The notes under the pieces were generated by a model. The model made no database searches, was not told the DNA's origin, and saw only the letters and a list, made by a program, of their open reading frames with translations. Position numbers and translations under genes: made by a program. Of a stretch of 64,000 nt of DNA, positions 3,027-36,909 are shown in pieces. Positions within the stretch are counted from its first letter, which is position 1; each line of letters begins with the position of its first letter. Source of the DNA: Candidatus Marinacidobacterium sp. (lineage in GTDB: Bacteria; Acidobacteriota; Vicinamibacteria; Marinacidobacterales; Marinacidobacteraceae); assembly GCA_965204755.1 (NCBI GenBank), contig OZ242011.1:2912001-2976000 (forward strand). The letters are read 5' to 3'.

Positions 3027-3247
3027 CAGCCCGTGGAAAAAGCGCCCCGCCGTCCATTCCCCGACGCGAGGGCGCCAAGTCCGCGTTCGGTAGTGCGGCG
3101 GGGCGCTCTTCCCACGGGCCGGCGGCGCGAATCGCTGCGCGATTCCCCCCGCCATCTATCGCGGGGAGGGGGCCGCCCCCTCCCCGCACCCCTCCCCGGT
3201 CGGCGCTTCGCGCCGACGGGGGCTCTCCGGACTTTCTCCACGGGCGG
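3027..3247. mobile_element. MITE-like element, 221 bp, copy 1
   Basis: Terminal inverted repeats CAGCCCGTGGAAAAAG / CTTTCTCCACGGGCGG, internal palindromes, same-length homolog at 62439-62659, no transposase. Confidence 0.75.
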
Positions 3248-22580: not shown

Positions 22581-25139
22581 ATGCGTAATCCGCAGTTTTC
22601 TGCCTCCGCCCTCGGACTCGGCGCCCTGCTGCTGGCGCTTCCGCCCGCGGCCTTCGCCGGGCCGCAGGCCGCCGCGCCCGCTCCGTCGGTTTCGCCCGCT
22701 CCGTCGGTTTCGACTGTCGCGGGGGTCCGGGCCTTCGAGCCGAGCAGAGAGCCGGCGGCCGTCGGAGAGGCGCCGGCGGCGGTTTCGGCCGCCGTGGCGG
22801 CGGCGCACAACCGGGTCCTCCGCACCTACTGCATGGTGTGCCACAACGACCGGATGCGGACCGGGAACATGACGCTCTCCGGGTTCGACGCCGGGGACGC
22901 CCCGGGTTCGGCCCCGCTGGCGGAGAAGGTGGTTTCGAAGTTGCGGCTGGGGATGATGCCCCCGCCGGGTGCCCGCCGTCCGGACGACGCGGTTCTCGAA
23001 GAGATCGCGGTTTCGCTGGAGGGTCAGTTGGACACGGTCTGGGCGGCCTCCCCGGAGCCGGGTCGGCGTTCGTTCCAGCGGTTGAACCGGGCGGAGTACA
23101 CGGCGGCGGTGCGCGACCTGTTGTCGCTGCCGATCGACGCTTCGGAGTATCTGCCGCAGGACACGATCAGCGCGAACTTCGACAACATCGCGGACGCGCA
23201 GATGCTTTCGGCGACCCTGATGGACGCGTACCTGCGGGCGGCGAGCGAGATCAGCCGCCTCGCCGTCGGCGACCCCGAGGCCGAGCCGGCGGAAACGAGT
23301 TACTTCGTCTCCCGCTGGGCCTCGCAGCGCCGCCAGGTGGAGGGCGCCCCCTACGGCACCCGGGGCGGACTCGCCGCCGAGCATGTGTTCCCGGCGGACG
23401 GGCACTATGTCTTCCGCGTCTCCCTGCATCACGAGGTATGCGGCCCGATCGTGGGCACCGCCGCCGGCGCGCTGAATTCGGAGAGCAATCCGGAACGGAT
23501 CGAAGTCTCCATAGACGGCGAGCGCGTGGCGCTGCTCTCCATCGATCCCTGGATGCATACCTCGGATCCCGGCGGCGCGACGATGCGCACCGAGCCGATC
23601 TTCGTGAAGGCCGGCCCCCGGAAAGTGGCCGCCGCCTTCCTGCGGCAGTTCGACGGCCCGGTCCAGGACCTGATCTCGCCGCACGACTGGTCGCTCGCCT
23701 CCACCAACATCGCGCTCACCTACGGCATCCACAGCCTCCCCCACCTGCGGGATGTCCTCGTCCGGGGCCCGTTCGATGCGACGGGTGTTTCGGAGACTCC
23801 GAGCCGGCGGGCGATCTTCGAGTGCCGTCCGCTGAGCGAGGCGGAGGCGCGTCCGTGCGCGGAGCGGATCCTGGGGCGTTTGGGCCGGTTGGCGTATCGG
23901 GGCTCGCTGACGGCGGGGAAGTTGGGTTCGCTGCTGGAGTTGTACGACGCGGGAGCGGCGGCGAACGGTTTCGAGGAGGGGATCCGGATGGGGATCGAGG
24001 GGATGCTGGCGAGCCCGAACTTCGTGTTCCGGATCGAGGAGCCGCTGGACCCGCGCGAGGCGGAGTACGGGTATCCGCTTTCGGATGTGGACCTGGCGTC
24101 TCGGCTGTCGTTTTTCCTGTGGGGGACGATCCCGGACGGGGAGTTGCTGGACCTGGCGGAGGCGGGGCAACTGTCGGAGCCTGCGGTGTATGAGGCTCAG
24201 GTTCGGCGGATGCTGGCGGACGGGCGTTCGGATGCGCTTTCGCGGCGCTTTGCGAGCCAGTGGTTCCGGCTGCAGGACCTGGAGAAGATCAACCCGAATG
24301 TCCGTTTGTATCCGGACTTCCACCAGCAGTTGAAGACGGCGATGGTGGAGGAGACGGAGCGCTTCTTCCACCACCTGGTTGCGGAGGACCGGAGCGCGTT
24401 GGAGATGTTCACGGCGGACTACACCTTCGTGAACGAGCGTTTGGCGCACCACTACGGGATCCCGGGGGTTACGGGGCCGGAGCACCGGCTGGTGCGGTAT
24501 CCGGACGAGAGCCGCCGGGGGGTGTTCGGCCACGGGAGCATGTTGACGCTGACTTCGCACCCGTACCGGACTTCGGCGGTGCTGCGGGGGAAGTGGGTGA
24601 TGGAGGTGCTCCTGGGGAGTCCTCCTCCTCCGCCACCGCCGAATGTCTCGGACCTGGACGCGACTCCGGCGACGGCGGACGGCCGGGAGTTGACGGCGCG
24701 GGAGCGGCTGGAGATCCACCGGGACAACCCGGCGTGCCGCTCGTGCCACCGGATGATGGACCCGATCGGGCTGGCCCTGGAGCACTTCGATGTGACGGGC
24801 CGGGTCCGGGTGAAGGACTCGGGGCAGGCGATCGACGCTTCGGGCGAGTTCTACGACGGGACGGCGATCCGGGATGTTTCGGACTTGCGGGAGGCGCTGC
24901 TGCAGCGCCCGATACCGCTGCTTCGGACTTTCACGGAGAACTTGCTGGCGTACGGGTTGGGGCGCCGGGTGGAGTATTTCGACCAGCCGCGGGTACGGGA
25001 GATCGTGCGGGAGGCGGAGGGTTCGGGGTACCGGATGTCGGCGTTCCTGCTGGGGGTGGCGCGGAGCCCGGCGTTCCTGCGCAAGGGCGGTTCGCCGGCG
25101 GAGGAGTCGGCGACGGAGGCGATTTCCGGTCAGCACTGA
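22581..25139 (+). CDS. DUF1592-family (PSD/PSCyt) cytochrome c-domain protein, copy 1
   Basis: Signal peptide, CMVCH and CRSCH heme motifs, [43 protein letters not shown]. Confidence 0.9.
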   Translation: MRNPQFSASALGLGALLLALPPAAFAGPQAAAPAPSVSPAPSVSTVAGVRAFEPSREPAAVGEAPAAVSAAVAAAHNRVLRTYCMVCHNDRMRTGNMTLSGFDAGDAPGSAPLAEKVVSKLRLGMMPPPGARRPDDAVLEEIAVSLEGQLDTVWAASPEPGRRSFQRLNRAEYTAAVRDLLSLPIDASEYLPQDTISANFDNIADAQMLSATLMDAYLRAASEISRLAVGDPEAEPAETSYFVSRWASQRRQVEGAPYGTRGGLAAEHVFPADGHYVFRVSLHHEVCGPIVGTAAGALNSESNPERIEVSIDGERVALLSIDPWMHTSDPGGATMRTEPIFVKAGPRKVAAAFLRQFDGPVQDLISPHDWSLASTNIALTYGIHSLPHLRDVLVRGPFDATGVSETPSRRAIFECRPLSEAEARPCAERILGRLGRLAYRGSLTAGKLGSLLELYDAGAAANGFEEGIRMGIEGMLASPNFVFRIEEPLDPREAEYGYPLSDVDLASRLSFFLWGTIPDGELLDLAEAGQLSEPAVYEAQVRRMLADGRSDALSRRFASQWFRLQDLEKINPNVRLYPDFHQQLKTAMVEETERFFHHLVAEDRSALEMFTADYTFVNERLAHHYGIPGVTGPEHRLVRYPDESRRGVFGHGSMLTLTSHPYRTSAVLRGKWVMEVLLGSPPPPPPPNVSDLDATPATADGRELTARERLEIHRDNPACRSCHRMMDPIGLALEHFDVTGRVRVKDSGQAIDASGEFYDGTAIRDVSDLREALLQRPIPLLRTFTENLLAYGLGRRVEYFDQPRVREIVREAEGSGYRMSAFLLGVARSPAFLRKGGSPAEESATEAISGQH

Positions 25140-27002
25140 CCGGCAGAGCACGGGTTCCGGGGACGGGGCCGAGGAGAGACGGATGCACTACCTGACGGGC
25201 AAGAGCCTTCCGAGGCGGAGTTTCCTGCGGGGCGCGGGGGCGGTGGTGGCGCTGCCGTTCCTGGACGCGATGGTTCCGGCGAGCGCGGCGGCGAAGGTCG
25301 CGGGCTCGGCGGACCGGACGCGCCTGGTTGCGGTGGAGATCGTGCACGGCGCGGCGGGGAGCAACAAGTACGGCCGGGAGAACCACCTGTGGTCCCCGGA
25401 GGCGGAGGGGACGGAGTTCGACCTGTCCCGGGGGGCGCTGGCGCCGCTGGAGCCGGTTCGGGACTATGTGACGGTCGTGAGCGACTGCGATGTGGAGCCG
25501 GCGGAGGCGCGGACGGCGCGGGAGATCGGCGGCGACCACTTCCGTTCGAGCGCGGCGTTCCTGACGCAGTCGTATCCGAAGCAGACGGAGAGTTCCGATG
25601 TGTATGCCGGGACTTCCCTGGACCAGTTGTATGCGCAACGGTTCGGGCAGGAGACTCCGATCCCTTCGATGCAGTTGTGCATCGAGACGGTGGACCAGGC
25701 CGGGGGCTGCGCGTACGGGTATGCGTGCGTGTACACGGACACGATCAGTTGGGCTTCCCCGACGGAGCCGCTCCCGATGACGCGTGACCCCCGGATCGTG
25801 TTCGACCAGTTGTTCGGCGCGGGCGGGACGCCGGAGGGCCGGCTGGCTCGGCAGGAGGCGCGCCGGAGCGTGCTGGACTTCATCTCGGGGGAGGTGCGGG
25901 ACCTGAAGCGCAGTCTGGACTCGGAGGACCTGCGGCGGATGGACCGGTACCTGACGGACATCCGGGAGATGGAGCGCCGGATCGAGCGGATCGTCGCGCG
26001 GAACACGAGCGGGGAGTTGCGTGACCTCCCGGATGCGCCTTCGGGGGTTCCGGACTCGTTCGACGAGCATGTGAAGATCATGTTCGACCTGCAGGCGTTG
26101 GCGTTCCAGTCGGACATGACGCGGGTGTTCAGTTTCAAGTTGGGTCGGGACGCGTCGAGCCGGGTGTATCCGGAGAGCGGGGAGTCGACGGCGTTCCACC
26201 CGGCGTCGCACCACGGCAACGACCCGGAGCGGGTGGAGATCCTGGGTCGGATCAACCGGTACCATGTGGGTTTGATTCCGTACTTCATGGAGAAGTTGCG
26301 GAGCATCGAGGAGGGTGACCGGACGCTCCTGGACAAGACGATGATCGTGTACGGGTCTCCGATGGGTGATCCGAACATCCACAACCACAAGCGGGTCCCG
26401 TTCTTCGTTGCGGGCGGGGCGAACGGGGCGCTGGAGAACAACCTGCACCTGCGTGCGGCGCCGGGGACGCCCTTGGCGAATGTGATGCTGTCGCTGCTGC
26501 GGCGGTTGGGCCTGGAGGACCTGGAGAGTTTCGGGAACAGCACCGGGGAGTTTTCGCTTTCGGCGTAGGCCGGGGGCGTGACCTGGTAGCGGGAGTGAGG
26601 GCCATGGGCGTTCTGACGAGGACACGGGTTCTGGCGCTTTCGGCGCTGGTGAGCGCTGCGGCTCTGGCGGTGGCGGCAGCGCCGTCGTCGGGTCCGGTGT
26701 TGGAGGCGGCGAAGCGGGGCGATGTGGAGTCGGTGCGGGCGGAGTTGCGTTCGGGTGGTGATGTGAACGCGGCGGAGGGGGACGGTTTCACGGCGCTGCA
26801 CTGGGCGGCGAAGCGCGGCGACGCGGAGTTGGCGGGTGTCCTGTTGTCTGCGGGAGCGGACTTCCGTGCGACGACGCGGCTGGGCGCGCACCAGCCGCTG
26901 CATGTGGCGGCGGCTGCGGGTGAGGCGGAGGTGGCGGAGGCGCTTTTGTCTGCGGGAGCGCCGGTCAGCGCGCCCACCGGTACCGGCGCCCGGCCGATCC
27001 AC
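22800..27002 (+). repeat. Long direct repeat unit A (near-identical blocks about 22800-23272 and 23762-27002)
   Basis: Matches 31255-35457 at a constant offset of 8455 bp. Confidence 0.95.
25183..26568 (+). CDS. DUF1552 (HXXSHH) family Tat-exported protein, copy 1
   Basis: LPRRSFLRG Tat motif, LPFLDAM, FHPASHH, TLLDKTM; GAGGAG upstream. Confidence 0.9.
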   Translation: MHYLTGKSLPRRSFLRGAGAVVALPFLDAMVPASAAAKVAGSADRTRLVAVEIVHGAAGSNKYGRENHLWSPEAEGTEFDLSRGALAPLEPVRDYVTVVSDCDVEPAEARTAREIGGDHFRSSAAFLTQSYPKQTESSDVYAGTSLDQLYAQRFGQETPIPSMQLCIETVDQAGGCAYGYACVYTDTISWASPTEPLPMTRDPRIVFDQLFGAGGTPEGRLARQEARRSVLDFISGEVRDLKRSLDSEDLRRMDRYLTDIREMERRIERIVARNTSGELRDLPDAPSGVPDSFDEHVKIMFDLQALAFQSDMTRVFSFKLGRDASSRVYPESGESTAFHPASHHGNDPERVEILGRINRYHVGLIPYFMEKLRSIEEGDRTLLDKTMIVYGSPMGDPNIHNHKRVPFFVAGGANGALENNLHLRAAPGTPLANVMLSLLRRLGLEDLESFGNSTGEFSLSA

Positions 27003-28634
27003 TACGCGGCGGCTTCGGGGAGCGCCGCGATCGTGGAGACGCTCGCCTCCCACGGCGCGGATGTGAACGCCGTCGAACCCGGCTGGGGCCAGACCCCGCT
27101 GATGTTCGCCGCCGGAGTCGGCCGGCCGGAGACGGTGGGCGCCCTCCTCGAAGCCGGCGCCGACCCGGCGGTCACCGCGGCGGTGCTCGATGTGGCGGCG
27201 CGGGGCGAGGCCGACCTGATCGCCCGCCGCGCGCGGCAGGCCCGGGTGGACCGCGAACGCGGCGGCGCCGGGGTCATCTACGACCCGCGGGAACGCGACA
27301 AGCAGCGGCGGGCCGCCCAGCGCCGGGCGCGCGCGGCGGCGGCGAAGGCGGAACGCGAGAAGGGCCGCACCGGGGAAGCGGCGGCCAAGCCGGCGGAGGC
27401 GCCCGCGACGGCGGCGGTCGGCGGAACCGGCGCTGCCGGCGGAACCGGCGCTGCCGGGGACATCCTGAAAAAGGACGGCAAGAGCGCGGAAGAGGCGGCC
27501 GCCGAACAGGCGGAGAAGGACGAACACGCGGAAGCCCACGGGCACCCGGAAGACGAGGCCGCCCGCCTGGCGAAGGAGGAAGAGGCCCGGAAGAAGGCCG
27601 GGGACAAGGAGAAGAATCGCCGGCAGCCGCTCCGCTACTCGGAACTGGTCGGGACCCACGGCGGCCTGACCGCCCTGTTGCTGGCGGTCCGCGACGGCCA
27701 CCGGGAAGCGGCGGTGACCCTCATGGACGGCGGCGCGGACCTGGACCAGCGCGCCGACGGGCACCGCACCACTCCGCTCCTCATGGCGGCGATCAACGGC
27801 CACTACGACATCGGCATGGATCTCCTGCAGCGCGGCGCCGACCCGAACCTCAAGAATGTCTCCGGCGCGGCGCCGCTCTACGCGGCGATCAACGCGCGAT
27901 GGATTTCCCAGCCGTTCCATCCGCAGCCTTCCGACCACCTGCAGCAGGAGACCTCGCACATCGAGTTCATGGAGGCGCTCCTCGACGCCGGTGCCGAGGT
28001 GGACGCCCGCCTGCAGCGGAAGCAGTGGTACAGCACCTACAACACCGACCAGTTGGGCGTGGACCGCGCCGGCGCGACGGCGTTCTGGCGCGCGGCCTAC
28101 GCGCTCGACATACCGGCGATGAAGATGCTGGTGGCGCGGGGCGCCGACCCGCACATCCCGACGATGAAGGTCCCGGAGCGCACGCTGCGGCGGCTCACCT
28201 CGCTCATTGACGAAGACGCCGAGGAAGACCCGTCCGGTCTTCCGGAAGTGCCGTACGGCGGGCCGGGGGTGCACCCGATCCACGCGGCGGCCGGAGTCGG
28301 CTACGGCCTCGGCCTCGCTGCCAACTCCCACCGGCACGCTCCGGAGGCCTGGCTTCCGGCGGTGAAGTACCTGGTCGAAGAACTCGGCGCGGACCCGGAC
28401 GCCCGCGACCACAACGGATACAGCGTGATCCACCACGCCGCCTCCCGCGGGGACAACGAGATGATCGAGTACCTGGTCTCGAAGGGCGCCGACCCGCTGG
28501 CGATCGCCCGCACCGGCCAGACGACCGTGGACCTGGCGAACGGCCCGGTGCAGCGCATCAGCCCGTTCCCGGAGACGATCGCGCTGCTCGAGGGTTTCGG
28601 CGCCAAGAACAACAACCGCTGCGTAGGCTGCTGA
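26604..28634 (+). CDS. Secreted ankyrin-repeat protein, copy 1
   Basis: Repeated GxTALHWAA / GQTPLMFAA / TPLLMA motifs, signal peptide, C-terminal CVGC. Confidence 0.92.
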   Translation: MGVLTRTRVLALSALVSAAALAVAAAPSSGPVLEAAKRGDVESVRAELRSGGDVNAAEGDGFTALHWAAKRGDAELAGVLLSAGADFRATTRLGAHQPLHVAAAAGEAEVAEALLSAGAPVSAPTGTGARPIHYAAASGSAAIVETLASHGADVNAVEPGWGQTPLMFAAGVGRPETVGALLEAGADPAVTAAVLDVAARGEADLIARRARQARVDRERGGAGVIYDPRERDKQRRAAQRRARAAAAKAEREKGRTGEAAAKPAEAPATAAVGGTGAAGGTGAAGDILKKDGKSAEEAAAEQAEKDEHAEAHGHPEDEAARLAKEEEARKKAGDKEKNRRQPLRYSELVGTHGGLTALLLAVRDGHREAAVTLMDGGADLDQRADGHRTTPLLMAAINGHYDIGMDLLQRGADPNLKNVSGAAPLYAAINARWISQPFHPQPSDHLQQETSHIEFMEALLDAGAEVDARLQRKQWYSTYNTDQLGVDRAGATAFWRAAYALDIPAMKMLVARGADPHIPTMKVPERTLRRLTSLIDEDAEEDPSGLPEVPYGGPGVHPIHAAAGVGYGLGLAANSHRHAPEAWLPAVKYLVEELGADPDARDHNGYSVIHHAASRGDNEMIEYLVSKGADPLAIARTGQTTVDLANGPVQRISPFPETIALLEGFGAKNNNRCVGC

Positions 28635-28791
28635 CCTCCGACGGCGCTCGAGCGGCGCCGTTCATCATCAACCGGGCCGGGCGGATTTCCGCCGGCCCGG
28701 TTCCTCCCGCGTAGGGATTTCGCCGCCGGGAAAACCGGGGCGCGCCGGCGCTCCAGGGTCGCGCGCGACCGGCGGCGAGGTCGCCCGGCGG

Positions 28792-30678
28792 CTACGGCGT
28801 TGCGGCCGCCGGTTCCGGAGCCGCGGCGGTGGTTTCGACTCGGGGGAACCGGCGAACGACTTCGAGGAAGGCGTCCCCGTAGCGTTCGAGTTTCGCGGCG
28901 CCGACGCCCTGGATGTCCTCGAACTCGGCGCGGTCGGCCGGGCGCCGCTCGGCCATCTCGACCAGCGAGGAGTCGTGGAATACCACATACGGCGGCACGC
29001 CGTTCTCCCGGGCGAGGGCGAGTCGGAGTTCCCGGAGGGCCTCGAAGAGCGGTTCGGCTTCCGCCGCCAAGTCGTCGCGCCGCCGTTTCGGTGCCCGTTC
29101 CGCATCGGGGGTTCTTCGCCGCGAGCGGGGCCGGGGCGCGAGGTCGCGGCGCAACTCGATGGACCGCTCCTTCCGGAGCACCGGCCACGACGCCGGAGTC
29201 AGTTTCACGGAGCCGTGCCGCTCCATGTCGACCCTGACCAGCCCGCGCGCCGCCAACTGGCGGAACACCGACCGCCACTGCCGGGCGTCGAGGTCGCTCC
29301 CGACCCCGTAAGTCGGCAGGCGGTCGTGTCCGTACGCGCGGATGCGGTCGTCCCCGTCGTCGCCCCGGAGGATCCGGATCAGGTATTCCCGCCCGAAACG
29401 TTGCCCGGTCCGATACACCGCGGACATCGCCTTTTGCGCCGGCACCGTGCCGTCCCAGGACTCCGGCGGCTCGAGACAGTTGTCGCAGTTGCCGCAGTTC
29501 CCGTCCCGCTCCTCGCCGAAGTAGGCGAGCAGCGCCCTCCGTCGGCAGCCGGTCAGTTCGCAGTAGCCGAGGAGCGCTTCCAGTTTGCGCGCGCTCACCC
29601 GCTTGTGCCGCTCGTCGGCGTCCGAAGTGTCCACCAGACTGCGGAGGCGCGCGACATCGGAGGTTCCGTAAGTCATCCAGGCCGTCGCCGGCTCACCGTC
29701 GCGGCCCGCCCGCCCGGTCTCCTGGTAGTAGGCCTCGAGGCTCTTCGGCAGGTCGAGGTGCGCCACGAACCGCACATCCGGTTTGTCGATGCCCATCCCG
29801 AACGCGATCGTCGCCACGATGACCACCCCGTCCCGCTCCATGAACGCCTCCTGCGCCGCCTCGCGTTCCGCCGCGGCCAGTCCGGCGTGGTACGGCCGGG
29901 CGTCGAGCCCGCGTTTCCGCAGCCAGTCGGCGGTTTCTTCCACGCCCCGCCGGGAGAGGCAGTACACGATGCCGGCGTCCCCTTCGTGTTCACCGAGGAG
30001 ACCGCGGACCAACTGCTGCTTCGGGTTGTCCTTGGGCGTCACCCGGTACCGGATGTTCGGGCGGTCGAAACTGGCGATGAACCGCCCGGCGCCGCGCAAC
30101 CCGAGCCGCTCGAGGATCTCGCGGCGGGTGGGCTCGTCGGCGGTCGCGGTGAGCGCCAGCCGGGGCACTCCGGGAAAGCGCTCACCGAGCGCCGCGAGTT
30201 CCAGGTACTCGGGTCGGAAGTCGTGACCCCAGGAGGCGACGCAGTGGGCTTCGTCTATCGCGATCAGGGCCAGGTCCACGCCATCGAGCAGCGAGAGCGC
30301 CCGCTCGCCGAGCAGACGTTCCGGCGCGGCGTAGAGCAGGTCGAGTTCGCCGCGGCGAACCCGGTTCTCGACCTCCAGGACTTCGGGATAGGAGAGCGTG
30401 GAGTTCAGGCTGGCGGCCCGGACGCCCTGCTGCCGGAGCGCGGCCACCTGGTCGTTCATGAGCGAGATGAGCGGCGAGACCACGACGCCCAGCCCCGGGC
30501 GGACGAGCGCCGGGACCTGGTAGCACAGCGACTTCCCGCCCCCGGTGGGCATGAGCACCAAGGCGTCCCGGCCGGCGAGCACCTCCCGGATCACCGCCTC
30601 CTGGTGGCCGAGGAACCGGTCGAATCCGAAGACCCGGCGCAGGACCTCCCCGGCGCTCGCGATTCCGTCGGCTTCCAC
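28792..30678 (-). CDS. recQ: ATP-dependent DNA helicase RecQ
   Basis: [42 protein letters not shown], Zn-binding CGNCDNC, HRDC (PPYVVFHD); GTG start inferred. Confidence 0.95.
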
Positions 30679-30791
30679 CGCCTCGTCCGCCTCGCGGCCT
30701 CCTCCGGCGCCCCGGGGTTCCTCGACCGGCGCTCCCGCCGTGCGCCGGCCCGTTTCTCGCCCCACCTCCGCCGGAAATCCTAGCCCGCGAG

Positions 30792-30977
30792 TTTTCCCGG
30801 AGGACGGTGACGAGTCGACGGGGATCGGCGCCCCGGCAGGCCCGCGAGAGGCCCCTTTCGGCTTGCATCCGGCGGCTTCCCCGATTTTCCCGGAGGACGG
30901 TGACGAGTCGACGGGGACCGGCGCCCCGACAGGCCCGCGAGAGGCCCCTTTCGGCTTGCATCCGGCGGCTTCCCCGA
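30792..30977. repeat. Tandem duplication, 2 x 93 bp, in the divergent recQ/operon promoter region
   Basis: 30792-30884 and 30885-30977 differ at about 2 positions. Confidence 0.92.
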
Positions 30978-30984
30978 CTACTCT
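30956..30984 (+). promoter_or_regulatory. Putative sigma70 promoter of operon copy 2
   Basis: TTGCAT-17 nt-TACTCT, about 60 nt upstream of ATG 31045. Confidence 0.55.
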
Positions 30985-31044
30985 CCGTAGTCGTTCCGTA
31001 CCCTGTCGGCGGGCGTGTATCCGCACTCCGGGCCGAGGTCTGAA

Positions 31045-33594
31045 ATGCCCCGTTTTTCCAGTAGTTATGCCGTAGCCGCCGGGCTCGCCGGTCTGCTCGC
31101 CGCAGCCGCGTCCGAGGCTGCCGCCACCGGCCAGAACGCGCCGGCTCCGTCGGCCGCCGTGGTCGCCGGGGTGCGGGCGTTCGAACCGGGCAGGGAGGCG
31201 CCGGCGACGAGCGGAGGGGCATCGGCCGCGGTCTCGGCTGCGGAAGCGGAAGCGGCGGCGCACAACCGCGTCATCCGCACCTACTGCATGGTGTGCCACA
31301 ACGACCGGATGCGGACCGGGAACATGACGCTCTCCGGGTTCGACGCCGGGGACGCCCCCGGTTCGGCGCCGCTGGCGGAGAAGGTGGTTTCGAAGTTGCG
31401 GCTGGGGATGATGCCCCCGCCGGGCGCCCGCCGGCCGGACGACGCGGTTCTCGAAGAGATCGCGGTTTCGCTGGAGGGGCAGTTGGACACGGTTTGGGCG
31501 GCGTCCCCGGAGCCGGGCCGGCGTTCGTTCCAGCGGTTGAACCGGGCGGAGTACACGGCGGCGGTGCGCGACCTGCTGTCGCTGCCGATCGACGCTTCGG
31601 AGTATCTGCCGCAGGACACGATCAGCGCGAACTTCGACAACATCGCGGACGCGCAGATGCTTTCGGCGACCCTGATGGACGCGTACCTGCGGGCGGCGAG
31701 CGAGATCAGCCGCCTCGCCGTCGGCGACGCCCGCGCGACGCCGGCCGAAGTCGGCTTCCATGTGTCGCGCTGGGCGTCCCAACTGGACACGGTGGAGGGC
31801 GCCCCGTACGGCACCCGGGGCGGGATCTCGGTCGAGCATGTGTTCCCCGCCGACGGCGAATACCGCTTCCGCCTCGCCTTCCACCACGAGACCACCGGCG
31901 CCATCGTCGGCTCCGGTTCCGGCTCCCTCCACACCTTCGGCAAGCCGGAACAGATCGAGATCTCCATAGACGGCGCGCGCGTCGCGCTGCTCGAAGTGGA
32001 TCGGTGGATGCATGTCTCCGATCCCGACGGAGTCAACCTCCGCACCGGGCCGATCTTCGTGAAGGCCGGGCCGCGCCGGATCTCCGCGGCGTTCCTGAAG
32101 CGGTTCGAAGGCCCGGTCCTCGACCTCATCTCGCCCCACGACTGGTCGCTCGCCTCCACGGCGACTTCGCGCGCCTACGGCATCCACAGCATGCCGCACC
32201 TGCGCGACCTGTTCATCCGGGGCCCGTTCGACGCGACGGGTGTTTCGGAGACTCCGAGCCGGCGGGCGATCTTCGAGTGCCGTCCGCTGAGCGAGGCGGA
32301 GGCGCGTCCGTGCGCGGAGCGGATCCTGGGGCGTTTGGGCCGGCTGGCGTATCGGGGCTCGCTGACGGCGGGGAAGTTGGGTTCGCTGCTGGAGTTGTAC
32401 GACGCGGGAGCGGCGGCGAACGGTTTCGAGGAGGGGATCCGGATGGGGATCGAGGGGATGCTGGCGAGCCCGAACTTCGTGTTCCGGATCGAGGAGCCGC
32501 TGGACCCGCGCGAGGCGGAGTACGGGTATCCGCTTTCGGATGTGGACCTGGCGTCTCGGCTGTCGTTTTTCCTGTGGGGGACGATCCCGGACGGGGAGTT
32601 GCTGGACCTGGCGGAGGCGGGGCAACTGTCGGAGCCTGCGGTGTATGAGGCTCAGGTTCGGCGGATGCTGGCGGACGGGCGTTCGGATGCGCTTTCGCGG
32701 CGCTTTGCGAGCCAGTGGTTCCGGCTGCAGGACCTGGAGAAGATCAACCCGAATGTCCGTTTGTATCCGGACTTCCACCAGCAGTTGAAGACGGCGATGG
32801 TGGAGGAGACGGAGCGCTTCTTCCACCACCTGGTTGCGGAGGACCGGAGCGCGTTGGAGATGTTCACGGCGGACTACACCTTCGTGAACGAGCGTTTGGC
32901 GCACCACTACGGGATCCCGGGGGTTACGGGGCCGGAGCACCGGCTGGTGAGGTATCCGGACGAGAGCCGCCGGGGGGTGTTCGGCCACGGGAGCATGTTG
33001 ACGCTGACTTCGCACCCGTACCGGACTTCGGCGGTGCTGCGGGGGAAGTGGGTGATGGAGGTGCTCCTGGGGAGTCCTCCTCCTCCGCCACCGCCGAATG
33101 TTTCGGACCTGGACGCGACTCCGGCGACGGCGGACGGCCGGGAGTTGACGGCGCGGGAGCGGCTGGAGATCCACCGGGACAACCCGGCGTGCCGCTCGTG
33201 CCACCGGATGATGGACCCGATCGGGCTGGCCCTGGAGCACTTCGATGTGACGGGCCGGGTCCGGGTGAAGGACTCGGGGCAGGCGATCGACGCTTCGGGC
33301 GAGTTCTACGACGGGACGGCGATCCGGGATGTTTCGGACTTGCGGGAGGCGCTGCTGCAGCGCCCGATACCGCTGCTTCGGACTTTCACGGAGAACTTGC
33401 TGGCGTACGGGTTGGGGCGCCGGGTGGAGTATTTCGACCAGCCGCGGGTACGGGAGATCGTGCGGGAGGCGGAGGGTTCGGGGTACCGGATGTCGGCGTT
33501 CCTGCTGGGGGTGGCGCGGAGCCCGGCGTTCCTGCGCAAGGGCGGTTCGCCGGCGGAGGAGTCGGCGACGGAGGCGATTTCCGGTCAGCACTGA
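31045..33594 (+). CDS. DUF1592-family cytochrome c-domain protein, copy 2
   Basis: Same motifs as copy 1; different leader and different central block of about 163 aa. Confidence 0.9.
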
Positions 33595-35457
33595 CCGGCA
33601 GAGCACGGGTTCCGGGGACGGGGCCGAGGAGAGACGGATGCACTACCTGACGGGCAAGAGCCTTCCGAGGCGGAGTTTCCTGCGGGGCGCGGGGGCGGTG
33701 GTGGCGCTGCCGTTCCTGGACGCGATGGTTCCGGCGAGCGCGGCGGCGAAGGTCGCGGGCTCGGCGGACCGGACGCGCCTGGTTGCGGTGGAGATCGTGC
33801 ACGGCGCGGCGGGGAGCAACAAGTACGGCCGGGAGAACCACCTGTGGTCCCCGGAGGCGGAGGGGACGGAGTTCGACCTGTCCCGGGGGGCGCTGGCGCC
33901 GCTGGAGCCGGTTCGGGACTATGTGACGGTCGTGAGCGACTGCGATGTGGAGCCGGCGGAGGCGCGGACGGCGCGGGAGATCGGCGGCGACCACTTCCGT
34001 TCGAGCGCGGCGTTCCTGACGCAGTCGTATCCGAAGCAGACGGAGAGTTCCGATGTGTATGCCGGGACTTCCCTGGACCAGTTGTATGCGCAGCGTTTCG
34101 GGCAGGAGACTCCGATCCCTTCGATGCAGTTGTGCATCGAGACGGTGGACCAGGCCGGGGGTTGCGCGTACGGGTATGCGTGCGTGTACACGGACACGAT
34201 CAGTTGGGCTTCCCCGACGGAGCCGCTCCCGATGACGCGCGACCCCCGGATCGTGTTCGACCAGTTGTTCGGCGCGGGCGGGACGCCGGAGGGCCGGCTG
34301 GCTCGGCAGGAGGCGCGCCGGAGCGTGCTGGACTTCATCTCGGGGGAGGTGCGGGACCTGAAGCGCAGTCTGGACTCGGAGGACCTGCGGCGGATGGACC
34401 GGTACCTGACGGACATCCGGGAGATGGAGCGCCGGATCGAGCGGATCGTCGCGCGGAACACGAGCGGGGAGTTGCGTGACCTCCCGGATGCGCCTTCGGG
34501 GGTTCCGGACTCGTTCGACGAGCATGTGAAGATCATGTTCGACCTGCAGGCGTTGGCGTTCCAGTCGGACATGACGCGGGTGTTCAGTTTCAAGTTGGGT
34601 CGGGACGCGTCGAGCCGGGTGTATCCGGAGAGCGGTGAGTCGACGGCGTTCCACCCGGCCTCGCACCACGGGAACGACCCGGAGCGGGTGGAGATCCTGG
34701 GGCGGATCAACCGGTACCATGTGGGTTTGATTCCGTACTTCATGGAGAAGTTGCGGAGCATCGAGGAGGGTGACCGGACGCTCCTGGACAAGACGATGAT
34801 CGTGTACGGGTCTCCGATGGGCGATCCGAACATCCACAACCACAAGCGGGTCCCGTTCTTCGTTGCGGGCGGGGCGAACGGGGCGTTGGAGAACAACCTG
34901 CACTTGCGTGCGGCTCCGGGGACGCCTCTGGCGAATGTGATGCTGTCGCTGCTGCGGCGGTTGGGCCTGGAGGACTTGGAGAGTTTCGGGAACAGCACCG
35001 GGGAGTTCTCGCTTTCGGCGTAGGCCGGGGGCGTGACCTGGTAGCGGGAGTGAGGGCCATGGGCGTTCTGACGAGGACACGGGTTCTGGCGCTTTCGGCG
35101 CTGGTGAGCGCTGCGGCTCTGGCGGTGGCGGCAGCGCCGTCGTCGGGTCCGGTGTTGGAGGCGGCGAAGCGCGGGGATGTGGAGTCGGTTCGGGCGGAGT
35201 TGCGTTCGGGTGGTGATGTGAACGCGGCGGAGGGGGACGGTTTCACGGCGCTTCACTGGGCGGCGAAGCGCGGCGACGCGGAGTTGGCGGGTGTCCTGTT
35301 GTCTGCGGGAGCGGACTTCCGGGCGACGACGCGGCTGGGCGCGCACCAGCCGCTGCATGTGGCGGCGGCTGCGGGAGAGGCGGAGGTGGCGGAGGCGCTG
35401 CTGTCTGCGGGAGCGCCGGTCAGCGCGCCCACGGGAACCGGCGCCCGGCCGATCCAC
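31255..35457 (+). repeat. Long direct repeat unit B
   Basis: Partner of 22800-27002, with only scattered substitutions in the shared blocks (e.g. C24495 vs A32950). Confidence 0.95.
33638..35023 (+). CDS. DUF1552 (HXXSHH) family protein, copy 2
   Basis: Translation appears identical to copy 1. Confidence 0.9.
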
Positions 35458-36909
35458 TTGGCCGCGGCCGCCGGCGACGAGCGAGTCGTCGCCGCCCTGG
35501 TCGCCGCCGGGGCGAATGTGGACGGGCAGGAGTCCGAGTGGGGAATGACCCCGCTCATGTTCGCCGCGGTGAAGGGGAGGTCGGAGGCCGTTACCGCCCT
35601 GTTGGAAGCGGGCGCTGACGCCGAAATCACCGCCAAGGTGCTCGACATCGTCGAGCGCGCCGAGTTCGACTCCGACGAGCGGCGGGCGCGGCAGGCCCGT
35701 TTGGCCGACCGGCGCGGCGGTACCGGCATCCTCTACGCCGAGCGTCCGGAGAACCGGGGAGCGCGCGCCGGCGGCGCGGCCGGCGCGGGCGCAGCCGCGG
35801 CGGGGACCGGAACCGGAGGCGGCGACCTGAATCCGGCCGGCCGCGCGGCCGGCGCGCCGCTCGACCCGCTGAATCCGGAAGTCGAAGAGGAAGATCCGAA
35901 CGAGCCGAAGCCGAAGACCTACGAGGAGCGTGTGGGCACCCACGGCGGCCTGACGGCGCTCCTGCTCGCCGCCCGGGAGGGGAAGATCGAGGCGGCCTCG
36001 GCGATGCTCGACGGCGGCGCCGATGTGAACCGGCGAGCCGCCGGAAGCGGCGCCACCCCGCTCCTGATGGCCACCATCAACGGCCACTTCGACCTGGCGA
36101 TGGAGTTGCTCGCGCGCGGCGCCGACCCGACGCTGGCCGACGCGCAGGGGGCGACGCCGCTCTACGGCGCGATCAACACCCAGTGGATACCCAAGGCGCG
36201 CCACCCGCAGCCGGCGGACTACCTCCAACAGGAGACCTCGCACCTGGAACTGATGCAGGCCCTGTTGGATGCCGGCGCCGATGTGAACGCCCGCATAGAC
36301 AGTTCCCTCTGGTACACGGTGTTCAATGTGGACCAACTGGGAGTGGACCGCAGCGGGGCGACCGCGTTCTGGCGCGCCGCCTATTCGCTGGACCTTCCGG
36401 CGATGAAGTTGCTCGTGGCGAACGGCGCCGACCCGCATATCCCGACGATCCGCGTCCCCGAACGGCGGCGCCTTCCCCGGATCATCCCGGAGGACGCCGA
36501 GGATCCCTCCGGCCTCCCGCCGGCCGAATACGGCGGCCCGGCGGTGTACCCGATCCATGCCGCCGCCGGAGTCGGCTACGGCCTCGGTTTGGCGGCGAAC
36601 TCACACCGTCACGCGCCGGAGGCGTGGTTCTCGGCGGTCGAATACTTGGTCGAAGAGTGCGGCGCGGATGTGACCGTCCGCGACCACAACGGCTACGGGG
36701 TCATCCACCATGCCGCTTCGCGCGGGGACAACGAGATGATCGAGTACCTCGTGGCGAAGGGCGCGGACCCGCTGCTCGTCGCCCGCACCGGCCAGACGAC
36801 GATCGACCTGGCCAACGGGCCGGTGCAGCGCATCAACCCCTTCCCGGAGACCATCGCGCTCCTCGAAAGTTACGGAGCCAAGAACAACCACGCCTGCGTC
36901 GGATGCTGA
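35059..36909 (+). CDS. Secreted ankyrin-repeat protein, copy 2
   Basis: First ~133 aa identical to copy 1, then diverged; ends CVGC. Confidence 0.92.
   Translation: MGVLTRTRVLALSALVSAAALAVAAAPSSGPVLEAAKRGDVESVRAELRSGGDVNAAEGDGFTALHWAAKRGDAELAGVLLSAGADFRATTRLGAHQPLHVAAAAGEAEVAEALLSAGAPVSAPTGTGARPIHLAAAAGDERVVAALVAAGANVDGQESEWGMTPLMFAAVKGRSEAVTALLEAGADAEITAKVLDIVERAEFDSDERRARQARLADRRGGTGILYAERPENRGARAGGAAGAGAAAAGTGTGGGDLNPAGRAAGAPLDPLNPEVEEEDPNEPKPKTYEERVGTHGGLTALLLAAREGKIEAASAMLDGGADVNRRAAGSGATPLLMATINGHFDLAMELLARGADPTLADAQGATPLYGAINTQWIPKARHPQPADYLQQETSHLELMQALLDAGADVNARIDSSLWYTVFNVDQLGVDRSGATAFWRAAYSLDLPAMKLLVANGADPHIPTIRVPERRRLPRIIPEDAEDPSGLPPAEYGGPAVYPIHAAAGVGYGLGLAANSHRHAPEAWFSAVEYLVEECGADVTVRDHNGYGVIHHAASRGDNEMIEYLVAKGADPLLVARTGQTTIDLANGPVQRINPFPETIALLESYGAKNNHACVGC

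Follow-up and report, generated by a model that had tools for sequence, protein, structure and literature searches.

Homogenised and G-skewed tracts in a tandemly duplicated PSCyt/PSD, DUF1552 and ankyrin operon: a GRINS-like locus

Genetic repeats with intense nucleotide skews (GRINS) are defined as repeats of more than 500 bp and more than 80% identity whose mean absolute GC and TA skews each exceed 0.15 in windows of 150 nt moved in steps of 30 (PMC8256042). Third codon positions show the most pronounced skews, GC and TA skew correlate with r 0.70, and the repeats are tied to gene conversion; a census found them in 53–90% of the genomes of five phyla, often in transposases (PMC8256042). The authors of that paper could not tell whether the skew promotes conversion or results from it. 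Here we describe a locus with several of these traits at positions 22581–36909 of a 64-kb window, the window being the whole stretch of DNA that was analysed (2,912,001–2,976,000 of the studied genome, G000, a single contig of 3.98 Mb with 71.7% G+C). It consists of two tandem copies of a three-gene operon coding for a PSCyt/PSD protein, a DUF1552 protein and an ankyrin-repeat protein. Two further processes are relevant for comparison. The tuf gene pair and the rRNA operons evolve in concert, being near-identical within a genome and diverging between species, with defined tract edges. To our knowledge, no strand skew or recoding at synonymous sites that is limited to the tracts has been described for them. 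GC-biased gene conversion (gBGC) is a fixation bias linked to recombination, which raises G+C symmetrically on both strands. As for the genes themselves, PSCyt3 genes usually adjoin a gene of unknown family, and their function is unknown (PMC5615132). For the present locus, we consider it very probable that an ancient tandem duplication of three genes has been homogenised by conversion along certain tracts, and that these tracts were recoded toward G where conversion was sustained, corresponding to the GC arm of GRINS.

The upstream operon (copy A) and the downstream one (copy B) have the same orientation and the same order of genes, gene 1, DUF1552 and ankyrin. Partner coordinates in copy B are those of copy A plus 8455. 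The genes and blocks are:

22581–25139, + strand: copy A gene 1, PSCyt/PSD protein of 852 aa (Pfam DUF1587, DUF1595, DUF1592, DUF1588, DUF1585)
22800–23272, + strand: 5′ homogenised block (partner 31255–31727; weak skew, with third-position G at 0.56–0.57 versus C at 0.35–0.36)
23273–23761, + strand: variable block V, aa 231–393 of gene 1, between DUF1587 and DUF1595 (partner 31728–32216)
23762–27002, + strand: main homogenised, G-skewed block (partner 32217–35457)
25183–26568, + strand: copy A gene 2, DUF1552 (HXXSHH) protein (Pfam E 5.7e-81), with an RRSFLRG signal of the twin-arginine translocation (Tat) type
26595–28634, + strand: copy A gene 3, apparently secreted ankyrin-repeat protein of 679 aa (Pfam), diverged from 27003 with indels at 27290–27630
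31045–33594, + strand: copy B gene 1, 849 aa, with the domain set of copy A gene 1
33638–35023, + strand: copy B DUF1552 gene (Pfam; start inferred as the copy A start plus the offset)
35050–36909, + strand: copy B ankyrin gene, 619 aa (Pfam and translation)

Between about 22796 and 27290 the two copies align without gaps, always 8455 bp apart, and identity changes abruptly along this alignment. The leader (22581–22799) is identical at only 98 of 219 positions, the 5′ block at 462 of 473 (97.7%), the V block at 357 of 489 (73.0%, with 64% amino acid identity between the G000 copies), the long block 23762–27002 at 3211 of 3241 (99.1%) and the ankyrin segment 27003–27290 at 184 of 288. Past 27290 indels occur, followed by 69–87% identity up to the ankyrin stop. 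The long block takes in the 3′-terminal 1.4 kb of gene 1, the whole DUF1552 gene with the intergenic spacers on either side of it and the first ~136 ankyrin codons. It thus runs across both junctions between genes (from the gene 1 stop at 25139 to the DUF1552 start at 25183, and from the DUF1552 stop at 26568 to the ankyrin start at 26595). The copies match exactly over runs of 990, 605 and 395 nt and do not differ in either intergenic spacer. Since identity reaches synonymous and intergenic sites, it does not stem from protein constraint. In the shared blocks 41 sites differ between the copies, 40 of them synonymously. An earlier sequence-only reading of this DNA had proposed two operon copies at this offset, near-identical blocks with these edges running across gene boundaries, and a diverged leader, internal block and ankyrin 3′ part. 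The alignment confirmed all of this, and the three hand counts of bases given in that reading proved exact on recount.

The same reading had named an assembly collapse as something that would undo it. An assembly or polishing artefact, whereby one copy was duplicated or diverged copies were homogenised by mis-mapped reads, deserves consideration since 3.2-kb repeats are difficult for short reads and several of the relatives discussed below are metagenome assemblies. We placed Logan contigs of four public runs, from three samples and three studies, on copy A; runs X15 and X16 are one sample, possibly the source. These contigs are built from short reads, do not phase the copies, and none spans the block with both flanks. 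Contig ends cluster near the block edges, at ~23761–23807 in four runs and at 26948–26977 in three, and the X3 contig of the shared block ends at 26677, about 300 bp short of the 3′ edge. Their depth, which is a coarse measure, was 420–494 in the shared block versus 241–244 in V, ankyrin 3′ part and flanks for X16, 99.9 versus 40.7–46.3 for X3 and 34.8 versus 19.5–21.1 for X1, and ambiguous for X15 (59–73 versus 29.5–67.3). The roughly twofold depth in X16, X3 and X1, which come from three studies, agrees with two real copies and is a hint rather than proof; it argues against a collapse. The differences between the copies, almost all synonymous, and the recurrence of this architecture in 4 genera (8 genomes, of which several are single-contig) likewise speak against an artefact, and a false identity would create no skew. 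We give this explanation a next to negligible probability.

The history of the blocks could be followed in relatives. DUF1552 matches were found in 33 of the 40 relatives searched and in 23 of the 24 genomes of the same family. The tandem pair is present in all 17 relatives fetched and, with G000, in 18 of 18 family genomes examined, which belong to genera g1, g2, g4, g5 and g6; the copies in relatives are usually spaced by ~6.2 kb. Eight genomes are converted, namely G000 and seven relatives (nine rows in the per-genome table, where G006 stands twice), and the 10 genomes of g2 are the 10 unconverted ones. The converted extent varies with genus: both blocks in g1 and g5, DUF1552 and part of gene 1 in g4, DUF1552 only in g6. 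In the tree of the ankyrin 3′ part, copies 1 and 2 split (100* on each side) across all genera, and the V block forms two clades, each 100*, with one member of each type in all 18 genomes. This grouping by type or position across genera shows that the duplication is ancient. In the DUF1552 tree, the two copies of one genome are sisters in 8 of 8 genomes of g1, g4, g5 and g6; in the 10 genomes of g2 the copies cluster inside the genus and then by position. The 3′ part of gene 1 groups within genomes in g1, g4 and g5, and by position in g6. The block-wise trees hence conflict in the way conversion predicts, which indicates that the shared blocks evolve in concert. Simple re-duplication is excluded, as it would homogenise the whole unit, yet the trees differ block by block. 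The idea of a gene-conversion mosaic, with within-genome clustering expected of the skewed blocks alone, was borne out by this discordance: such clustering was found for the shared blocks, and V and the ankyrin 3′ part cluster by type or position.

The variable modules had also been thought to be left free. This was not the case for V, which represents two ancient, conserved types, each under purifying selection. Within a type, V shows 85–88% amino acid identity between genomes and a ratio of non-synonymous to synonymous divergence (dN/dS) of 0.10–0.13; between types, amino acid identity is 65% and the proportion of synonymous differences (pS) 0.42. A bacterial operon can thus hold a layout of a shared core plus two fixed, specialised modules for the whole history of a family.

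Some relatives showed peculiarities of arrangement. The order of V types relative to ankyrin types is reversed in G000, G001 and G005 when compared to the other 15 genomes. This implies that these three lineages underwent a reciprocal exchange, either of the V module by itself or of the entire stretch between V and the ankyrin gene. In G004 (locus L015) the second copy carries ~6.3 kb inserted between gene 1 and DUF1552. In G005 (L018) an ankyrin gene was not detected after the second copy.

Base composition sets the long block of G000 apart. Its GC skew is +0.213 and its TA skew +0.095, compared to GC skews of −0.10 and −0.12 in the V blocks of the two copies, +0.02 in the ankyrin 3′ part and merely +0.07 in the 5′ identical block. 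Over 3-kb windows of the genome the standard deviation (sd) of GC skew is 0.058, and absolute skew has its 99th percentile at 0.179 and its 99.9th at 0.226. The long block lies above the 99th percentile and is therefore a genome outlier. At third codon positions its GC skew (GC3 skew) ranges from +0.19 to +0.79 per 180-nt window, and identity between the copies and GC3 skew are correlated within G000 (Spearman 0.62, p 0.0012, 24 windows of 180 nt). Among 1276 open reading frames (ORFs) of G000, called by their GC3 pattern, GC3 skew has a mean of −0.112, an sd of 0.146 and a 99th percentile of 0.296; both DUF1552 genes, at 0.32, rank 10th and 11th. A switch in composition at the block edges, as noticed before, is thus real for the long block against V and the ankyrin 3′ part; the 5′ block is only weakly skewed.

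Set against the definition of GRINS, the long block exceeds the limits of length and identity with 3241 bp at 99.1%, and the 5′ block (473 bp at 97.7%) falls just below 500 bp. Mean absolute GC skew is 0.216 for 23762–27002 and its partner, above 0.15, and 0.112 and 0.118 for the 5′ block and its partner, below it. Mean absolute TA skew, at 0.135 and 0.136, stays under 0.15, and the median tile of the genome already has 0.149; the DUF1552 genes of the 8 converted genomes have values of 0.066–0.096. GC and TA skew correlate with r 0.43 and 0.41 over the block versus a genome median of −0.09, and with −0.21 in the DUF1552 gene alone. The description as GRINS-like thus stands for length, identity, GC skew, third-position recoding and conversion, and fails for TA skew. 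We file the locus as GRINS-like, with the GC arm only, and not as a strict member of the class.

The coupling of skew and identity extends across genomes. Alignments of gene 1 and DUF1552 were cut into 150-nt windows for the 18 genomes, which yields 422 cells. Over these, between-copy identity and GC skew are correlated with a Spearman coefficient of 0.58, or 0.61 after per-window centring. Split by codon position, the coefficient is −0.01 for the first, 0.17 for the second and 0.62 for the third position. Cells of at least 98% identity have a mean GC3 skew of +0.385 and a third-position TA skew of +0.69, cells below 80% −0.04 and +0.33. A GC3 skew of at least 0.3 was seen in 83 of 111 cells at 97% identity or more versus 10 of 239 below 90%. 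Taken genome by genome, mean GC3 skew in the 8 converted genomes lies at +0.29 to +0.56 for cells of high identity and at −0.21 to +0.03 for cells of low identity. The edges of skew follow the edges of identity, which differ between lineages in three boundary configurations. In G013 and G015, for example, gene 1 is 71–94% identical and unskewed, and the adjoining DUF1552 gene is 100% identical and skewed. In the sister family, used as outgroup, GC3 skew of DUF1552 orthologs is −0.05 to −0.22 in 8 of 8, and a third, single-copy paralog, present in 8 family genomes of which 6 have skewed tandem pairs, shows −0.07 to −0.21, again in 8 of 8. The skew is a derived state, specific to converted tracts. 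Skew thus tracks identity in 150-nt windows within and between genomes, as predicted, and the single-copy orthologs and paralogs, whose equal skew would have spoken against it, are unskewed.

The skew is synonymous recoding toward G-ending codons with a smaller shift toward T. Third-position composition is C 0.31–0.63, G 0.32–0.55 and T 0.02–0.14 in unconverted copies, and C 0.12–0.36, G 0.55–0.71 and T 0.04–0.22 in converted ones; the share of A is low throughout. The G000 block differs strongly from the rest of the genome in the codons it uses: GCC accounts for 4% in the block versus 49% in the genome, CTC for 4% versus 52%, CCC for 5% versus 31%, ACC for 8% versus 62%, TCC for 8% versus 37% and GTC for 14% versus 48%. 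GAA (0 of 78 versus 35%) and AAA (0 of 18 versus 14%) are absent from the block, and TTG rises to 27% versus 6%. Two-fold families ending in C or T remain C-ending (GAC 84%, TTC 93%), and the V blocks of the same gene have ordinary codon usage. Block G+C, at 68.6%, is not raised.

A skew arising from the gene family or from codon adaptation (expression, tRNA pool, amino acid composition), which would coincide with the identical blocks by chance, has in its favour that protein sequence is conserved and that the operon sits on the inferred leading strand, whose genes in G000 have a slightly higher GC3 skew (−0.086 vs −0.150). The orthologous columns, however, are unskewed in the 10 g2 genomes, the 8 outgroup orthologs and the 8 single paralogs. 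Furthermore, codons are used normally in V, which belongs to the same gene, the first two codon positions are unrelated to identity, and GC3 skew of the block lies 3 sd above the genome mean. We regard this explanation as extremely unlikely. Alternatively, a skewed foreign allele with the codon usage of its donor could have been acquired horizontally and copied into both operons. That the DUF1552 tree joins all non-g2 genera in one clade (100*) could reflect a shared skewed allele. Against this stands the grouping of blocks by genus and genome, with stems of 0.04–0.13 substitutions per site, and the boundaries, which differ between genera. The proteins are 85–93% identical to those of unskewed orthologs, C-ending four-fold codons are almost wholly avoided yet two-fold ones kept, a pattern matching no genome examined, and asymmetric substitution went on after the split of G000 and G001. 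Foreign origin therefore seems very unlikely to us. Extreme synonymous recoding (GCC at 4% vs 49%) can arise without a change of host or of expression class, which matters where horizontal transfer or expression level is deduced from codon usage.

For sustained conversion with recoding, as we prefer to read the locus, the following course is proposed. In the distant past three genes, for a predicted haem-c protein of the PSCyt/PSD type, a DUF1552 protein with a Tat signal and an apparently secreted ankyrin protein, were duplicated in tandem. The copies stayed distinct at the leader, the 163-aa module of gene 1 with its two conserved types and the C-terminal part of the ankyrin protein, and the stretches of 0.47 kb and 3.2 kb between these parts were homogenised repeatedly by non-reciprocal recombination, i.e. 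gene conversion. Where homogenisation was sustained, the synonymous sites of exactly those tracts moved from C- and A-ending to G-ending and, less so, T-ending codons, which yields the coding-strand excess of G over C. The data above show the mosaic, the concerted evolution of the shared blocks and a derived, third-position skew that is coupled to the converted tracts. With moderate confidence we infer that the skew comes from a strand-asymmetric substitution or fixation bias acting while tracts are converted. Such a bias may be an exaggerated form of the ordinary asymmetry of leading and coding strand. It is a speculation that it might arise when one strand is repeatedly left single-stranded as direct repeats recombine or forks restart between them, or that heteroduplexes might be repaired in a biased way.

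Third-position substitutions since the splits of species pairs, polarised by parsimony against g2, are suggestive in this respect. The rate ratio of C>T to G>A was 4–12 in converted blocks versus 1.7–2.0 in unconverted controls, that of G>T to C>A from 1.9 up to 15:0 versus 1.7–2.7, and that of C>G to G>C 1.1–4.3 versus 0.56–1.2, with just 46–136 changes per converted-block comparison and a parsimony that is biased at fast, possibly saturated sites. Changes at position 3 thus appear more strand-asymmetric in converted blocks. Two specific routes were rejected. A role of G-quadruplexes found no footing: a canonical motif (four runs of at least three G, loops 1–7) is absent from either strand of either copy, in a genome that has 1252. 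GGG runs number 33 per kb in the block versus 20 per kb, an enrichment due to the skew itself. Pyrimidine-pyrimidine mismatches that escape repair after transfer of one strand would, by reasoning only, predict a gain of purines or pyrimidines and not of G and T.

Besides the limits of these spectra, a number of observations weigh against conversion as the source of the skew. In g2 a recent identical tract (26040–26490 in G002, G016 and G020) has no skew, and the 10 cells of this genus at 98% identity or more average a GC3 skew of −0.04. G034, from the sister family, has a 3261-bp tandem block of 99.97% identity without skew, and the dispersed DUF1552 copies of G036, 99.2–99.7% identical, have a GC3 skew of just −0.03. 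Conversely, 10 low-identity cells are skewed, of which 3 straddle a boundary and 7 are in g2 (6 in the subclade G014/G021/G024, 1 in G018). All unconverted genomes belong to a single genus, so that independent events are few, perhaps 3–4 boundary configurations, and similar composition may have distorted the DUF1552 tree. The inferred leading strand coincides with the coding strand of the operon in 5 of 5 genomes that have a dnaA position, hence polarities of transcription and replication are inseparable. Elsewhere in G000, 87 of 127 skewed 1-kb windows (absolute skew above 0.2) are single-copy, and in some other repeated genes the coding strand has a strong skew toward C (−0.41 to −0.53), so that a simple model of an exposed coding strand does not generalise. 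Identity here is close to necessary for skew, yet insufficient. The proposal that the process behind GRINS also homogenises this locus holds as far as the coupling in converted genomes goes; the identical unskewed tracts of g2 and G034 show that this process is not simply conversion. Either skew builds up under long-sustained conversion alone, or a lineage-specific factor is required, or skew favours conversion.

The last option, in which skew comes first and a G/T-rich, less complex block recombines more and drives sustained conversion, is a hypothesis of the GRINS authors (PMC8256042). The g2 cells of 79–89% identity with a GC3 skew of 0.32–0.48 (G014, G021, G024, G018) and the existence of single-copy skewed regions in G000 would be in line with it, but such cells of low identity may just as well reflect decay once conversion had ended. 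A skew that precedes conversion is further difficult to reconcile with the recent identical tracts lacking it, the coincidence of skew and identity edges in three boundary configurations and the unskewed ancestral state seen in outgroups and paralogs. We consider it rather unlikely. The first option, taken to its full extent, would be that sustained intragenomic conversion itself imposes a strand-asymmetric bias of fixation or mutation toward G and less so T on one strand, a strand-polar counterpart of gBGC. We hold this only tentatively and would not yet bet on it. If true, the size of the skew would record for how long a tract has evolved in concert, GRINS would be the footprint of long-running conversion rather than a separate genetic element, and the converted, formerly converted and never-converted columns of this family would be the first natural series in which to measure it.

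Beyond the operon, repeats make up 6.2% of the G000 genome and contain 40 of the 127 skewed 1-kb windows; among the 40 ORFs with the highest GC3 skew 26 lie in repeats, compared to 106 of 1276 overall. Repeats are thus enriched among skewed sequence and the phenomenon is not limited to this operon. Genome-wide, repeat identity and absolute GC skew are weakly correlated (Spearman 0.13, 254 pairs).

Several other repeats were observed on contig C1 of G000. Two neighbouring ORFs (1879940–1881428 and 1884817–1886824), whose translation by eye resembles a TonB-dependent receptor, share 1.1 kb at 95.9% identity. Their coding-strand GC3 skew of −0.3 to −0.75 has the sign opposite to the operon and extends past the repeat. 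A 1.9-kb element is present in four copies of 99.9–100% identity (1257064–1258988, 2340534–2342447, 3341158–3343072 and 3934805–3936720) and one partial copy at 1588497; its ORF has a GC3 skew of +0.46. At 210–219 kb and 3.527–3.545 Mb there are long tandem arrays with a period of ~693 bp and 80–93% identity, a sizeable GC skew and a strongly negative TA skew (−0.25 to −0.34). In other genomes, the DUF1552-containing pair of G034 (L051, G034:C11:1166000–1182500) has sharp block edges and flanks that are unrelated at that offset. The 9.2-Mb relative G036 has 34 DUF1552 matches, many dispersed and with near-equal scores. With the near-identity given above for four sampled copies, this suggests that the gene, or an element that carries it, was amplified recently.

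Regarding the gene products, the Pfam names of the domains in gene 1 are PSD3/DUF1587, PSD5/DUF1595, PSD4/DUF1592, PSCyt3/DUF1588 and PSD2/DUF1585 in both copies. The domains of the PSCyt/PSD and DUF1552 pair score above the gathering threshold and the genes are adjacent. In translation, the gene 1 proteins each have an N-terminus resembling a signal peptide and two CxxCH motifs, so that the product is a predicted periplasmic haem-c protein; as judged from sequence, the products of all three genes look exported. A search of the G000 genome for further copies found PF07586 and PF07631 twice each, both times at the locus, and thus no additional paralogs beyond the tandem pair that could serve as internal controls. 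DUF1552 homologs at ~71% identity carry the source names Gemmatimonadota, Gemmatimonadales or Candidatus Palauibacter.

The spacer between the copies contains one further gene, outside the repeated unit:

28792–30650, − strand: recQ helicase gene, 5′ end approximate (Pfam RQC, HRDC, RecQ_Zn_bind, Helicase_C, DEAD; frame from GC3)

It is the sole recQ match in the G000 genome. It would be lost if the direct repeats recombined and deleted what lies between them. The gene is also found in the spacer of G001, of the same genus, and not in the loci of 16 other relatives. At 30792–30977, in the gap that separates the recQ 5′ end from copy B, a 93-bp unit occurs twice in tandem with 98% identity.

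Among the known systems, the concerted evolution of tuf and rRNA genes differs from the present case, where conversion stably spares two internal modules throughout the family. With gBGC the locus would share a fixation bias tied to recombination tracts that alters synonymous composition. Unlike gBGC, however, there is no rise in G+C (68.6% vs 71.7%), and the change is strand-asymmetric, with G going up and C going down. The planctomycete-type PSCyt/PSD protein has the same domain set, is paired with a gene of unknown family and is predicted to be periplasmic (PMC5615132). The operon studied here differs from it by the added ankyrin gene and by the conserved tandem pair with two specialised variants.

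GRINS remain the closest relatives of these tracts. The likeness to GRINS as described in PMC8256042 covers the duplicated tract of more than 500 bp at more than 80% identity, the intense GC skew, its location at third positions, the recoding with respect to homologs, the link to conversion and the crossing of domain or gene boundaries. By the same source, the differences from GRINS of polyketide synthase (PKS) genes are a location outside a biosynthetic cluster and a skew that keeps one sign along the tract, in contrast to the abrupt changes of sign in PKS GRINS. The locus further differs from GRINS in general by an enrichment mainly in G and mildly in T, with TA skew below the threshold, and its host, whose phylum we take to be Gemmatimonadota from the names of homologs, is outside the five phyla surveyed. 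Papers using the words 'intense nucleotide skew(s)' all concerned PKS or non-ribosomal peptide synthetases (NRPS), in a search that did not cover the gene-family supplement of PMC8256042, which possibly lists non-PKS cases. A location outside PKS genes is in itself not new, since the census already contains such GRINS (PMC8256042). The locus is further set apart from described GRINS by the orthologous on/off contrasts between genera. The same columns occur in three states, continuously converted and skewed, recently converted and unskewed, and unconverted and unskewed, with never-converted modules inside the same genes as controls. This makes the origin of GRINS approachable with branch-wise substitution models and population data. 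The mosaic is well delimited, and its value lies chiefly in being a natural on/off series for the origin of GRINS.

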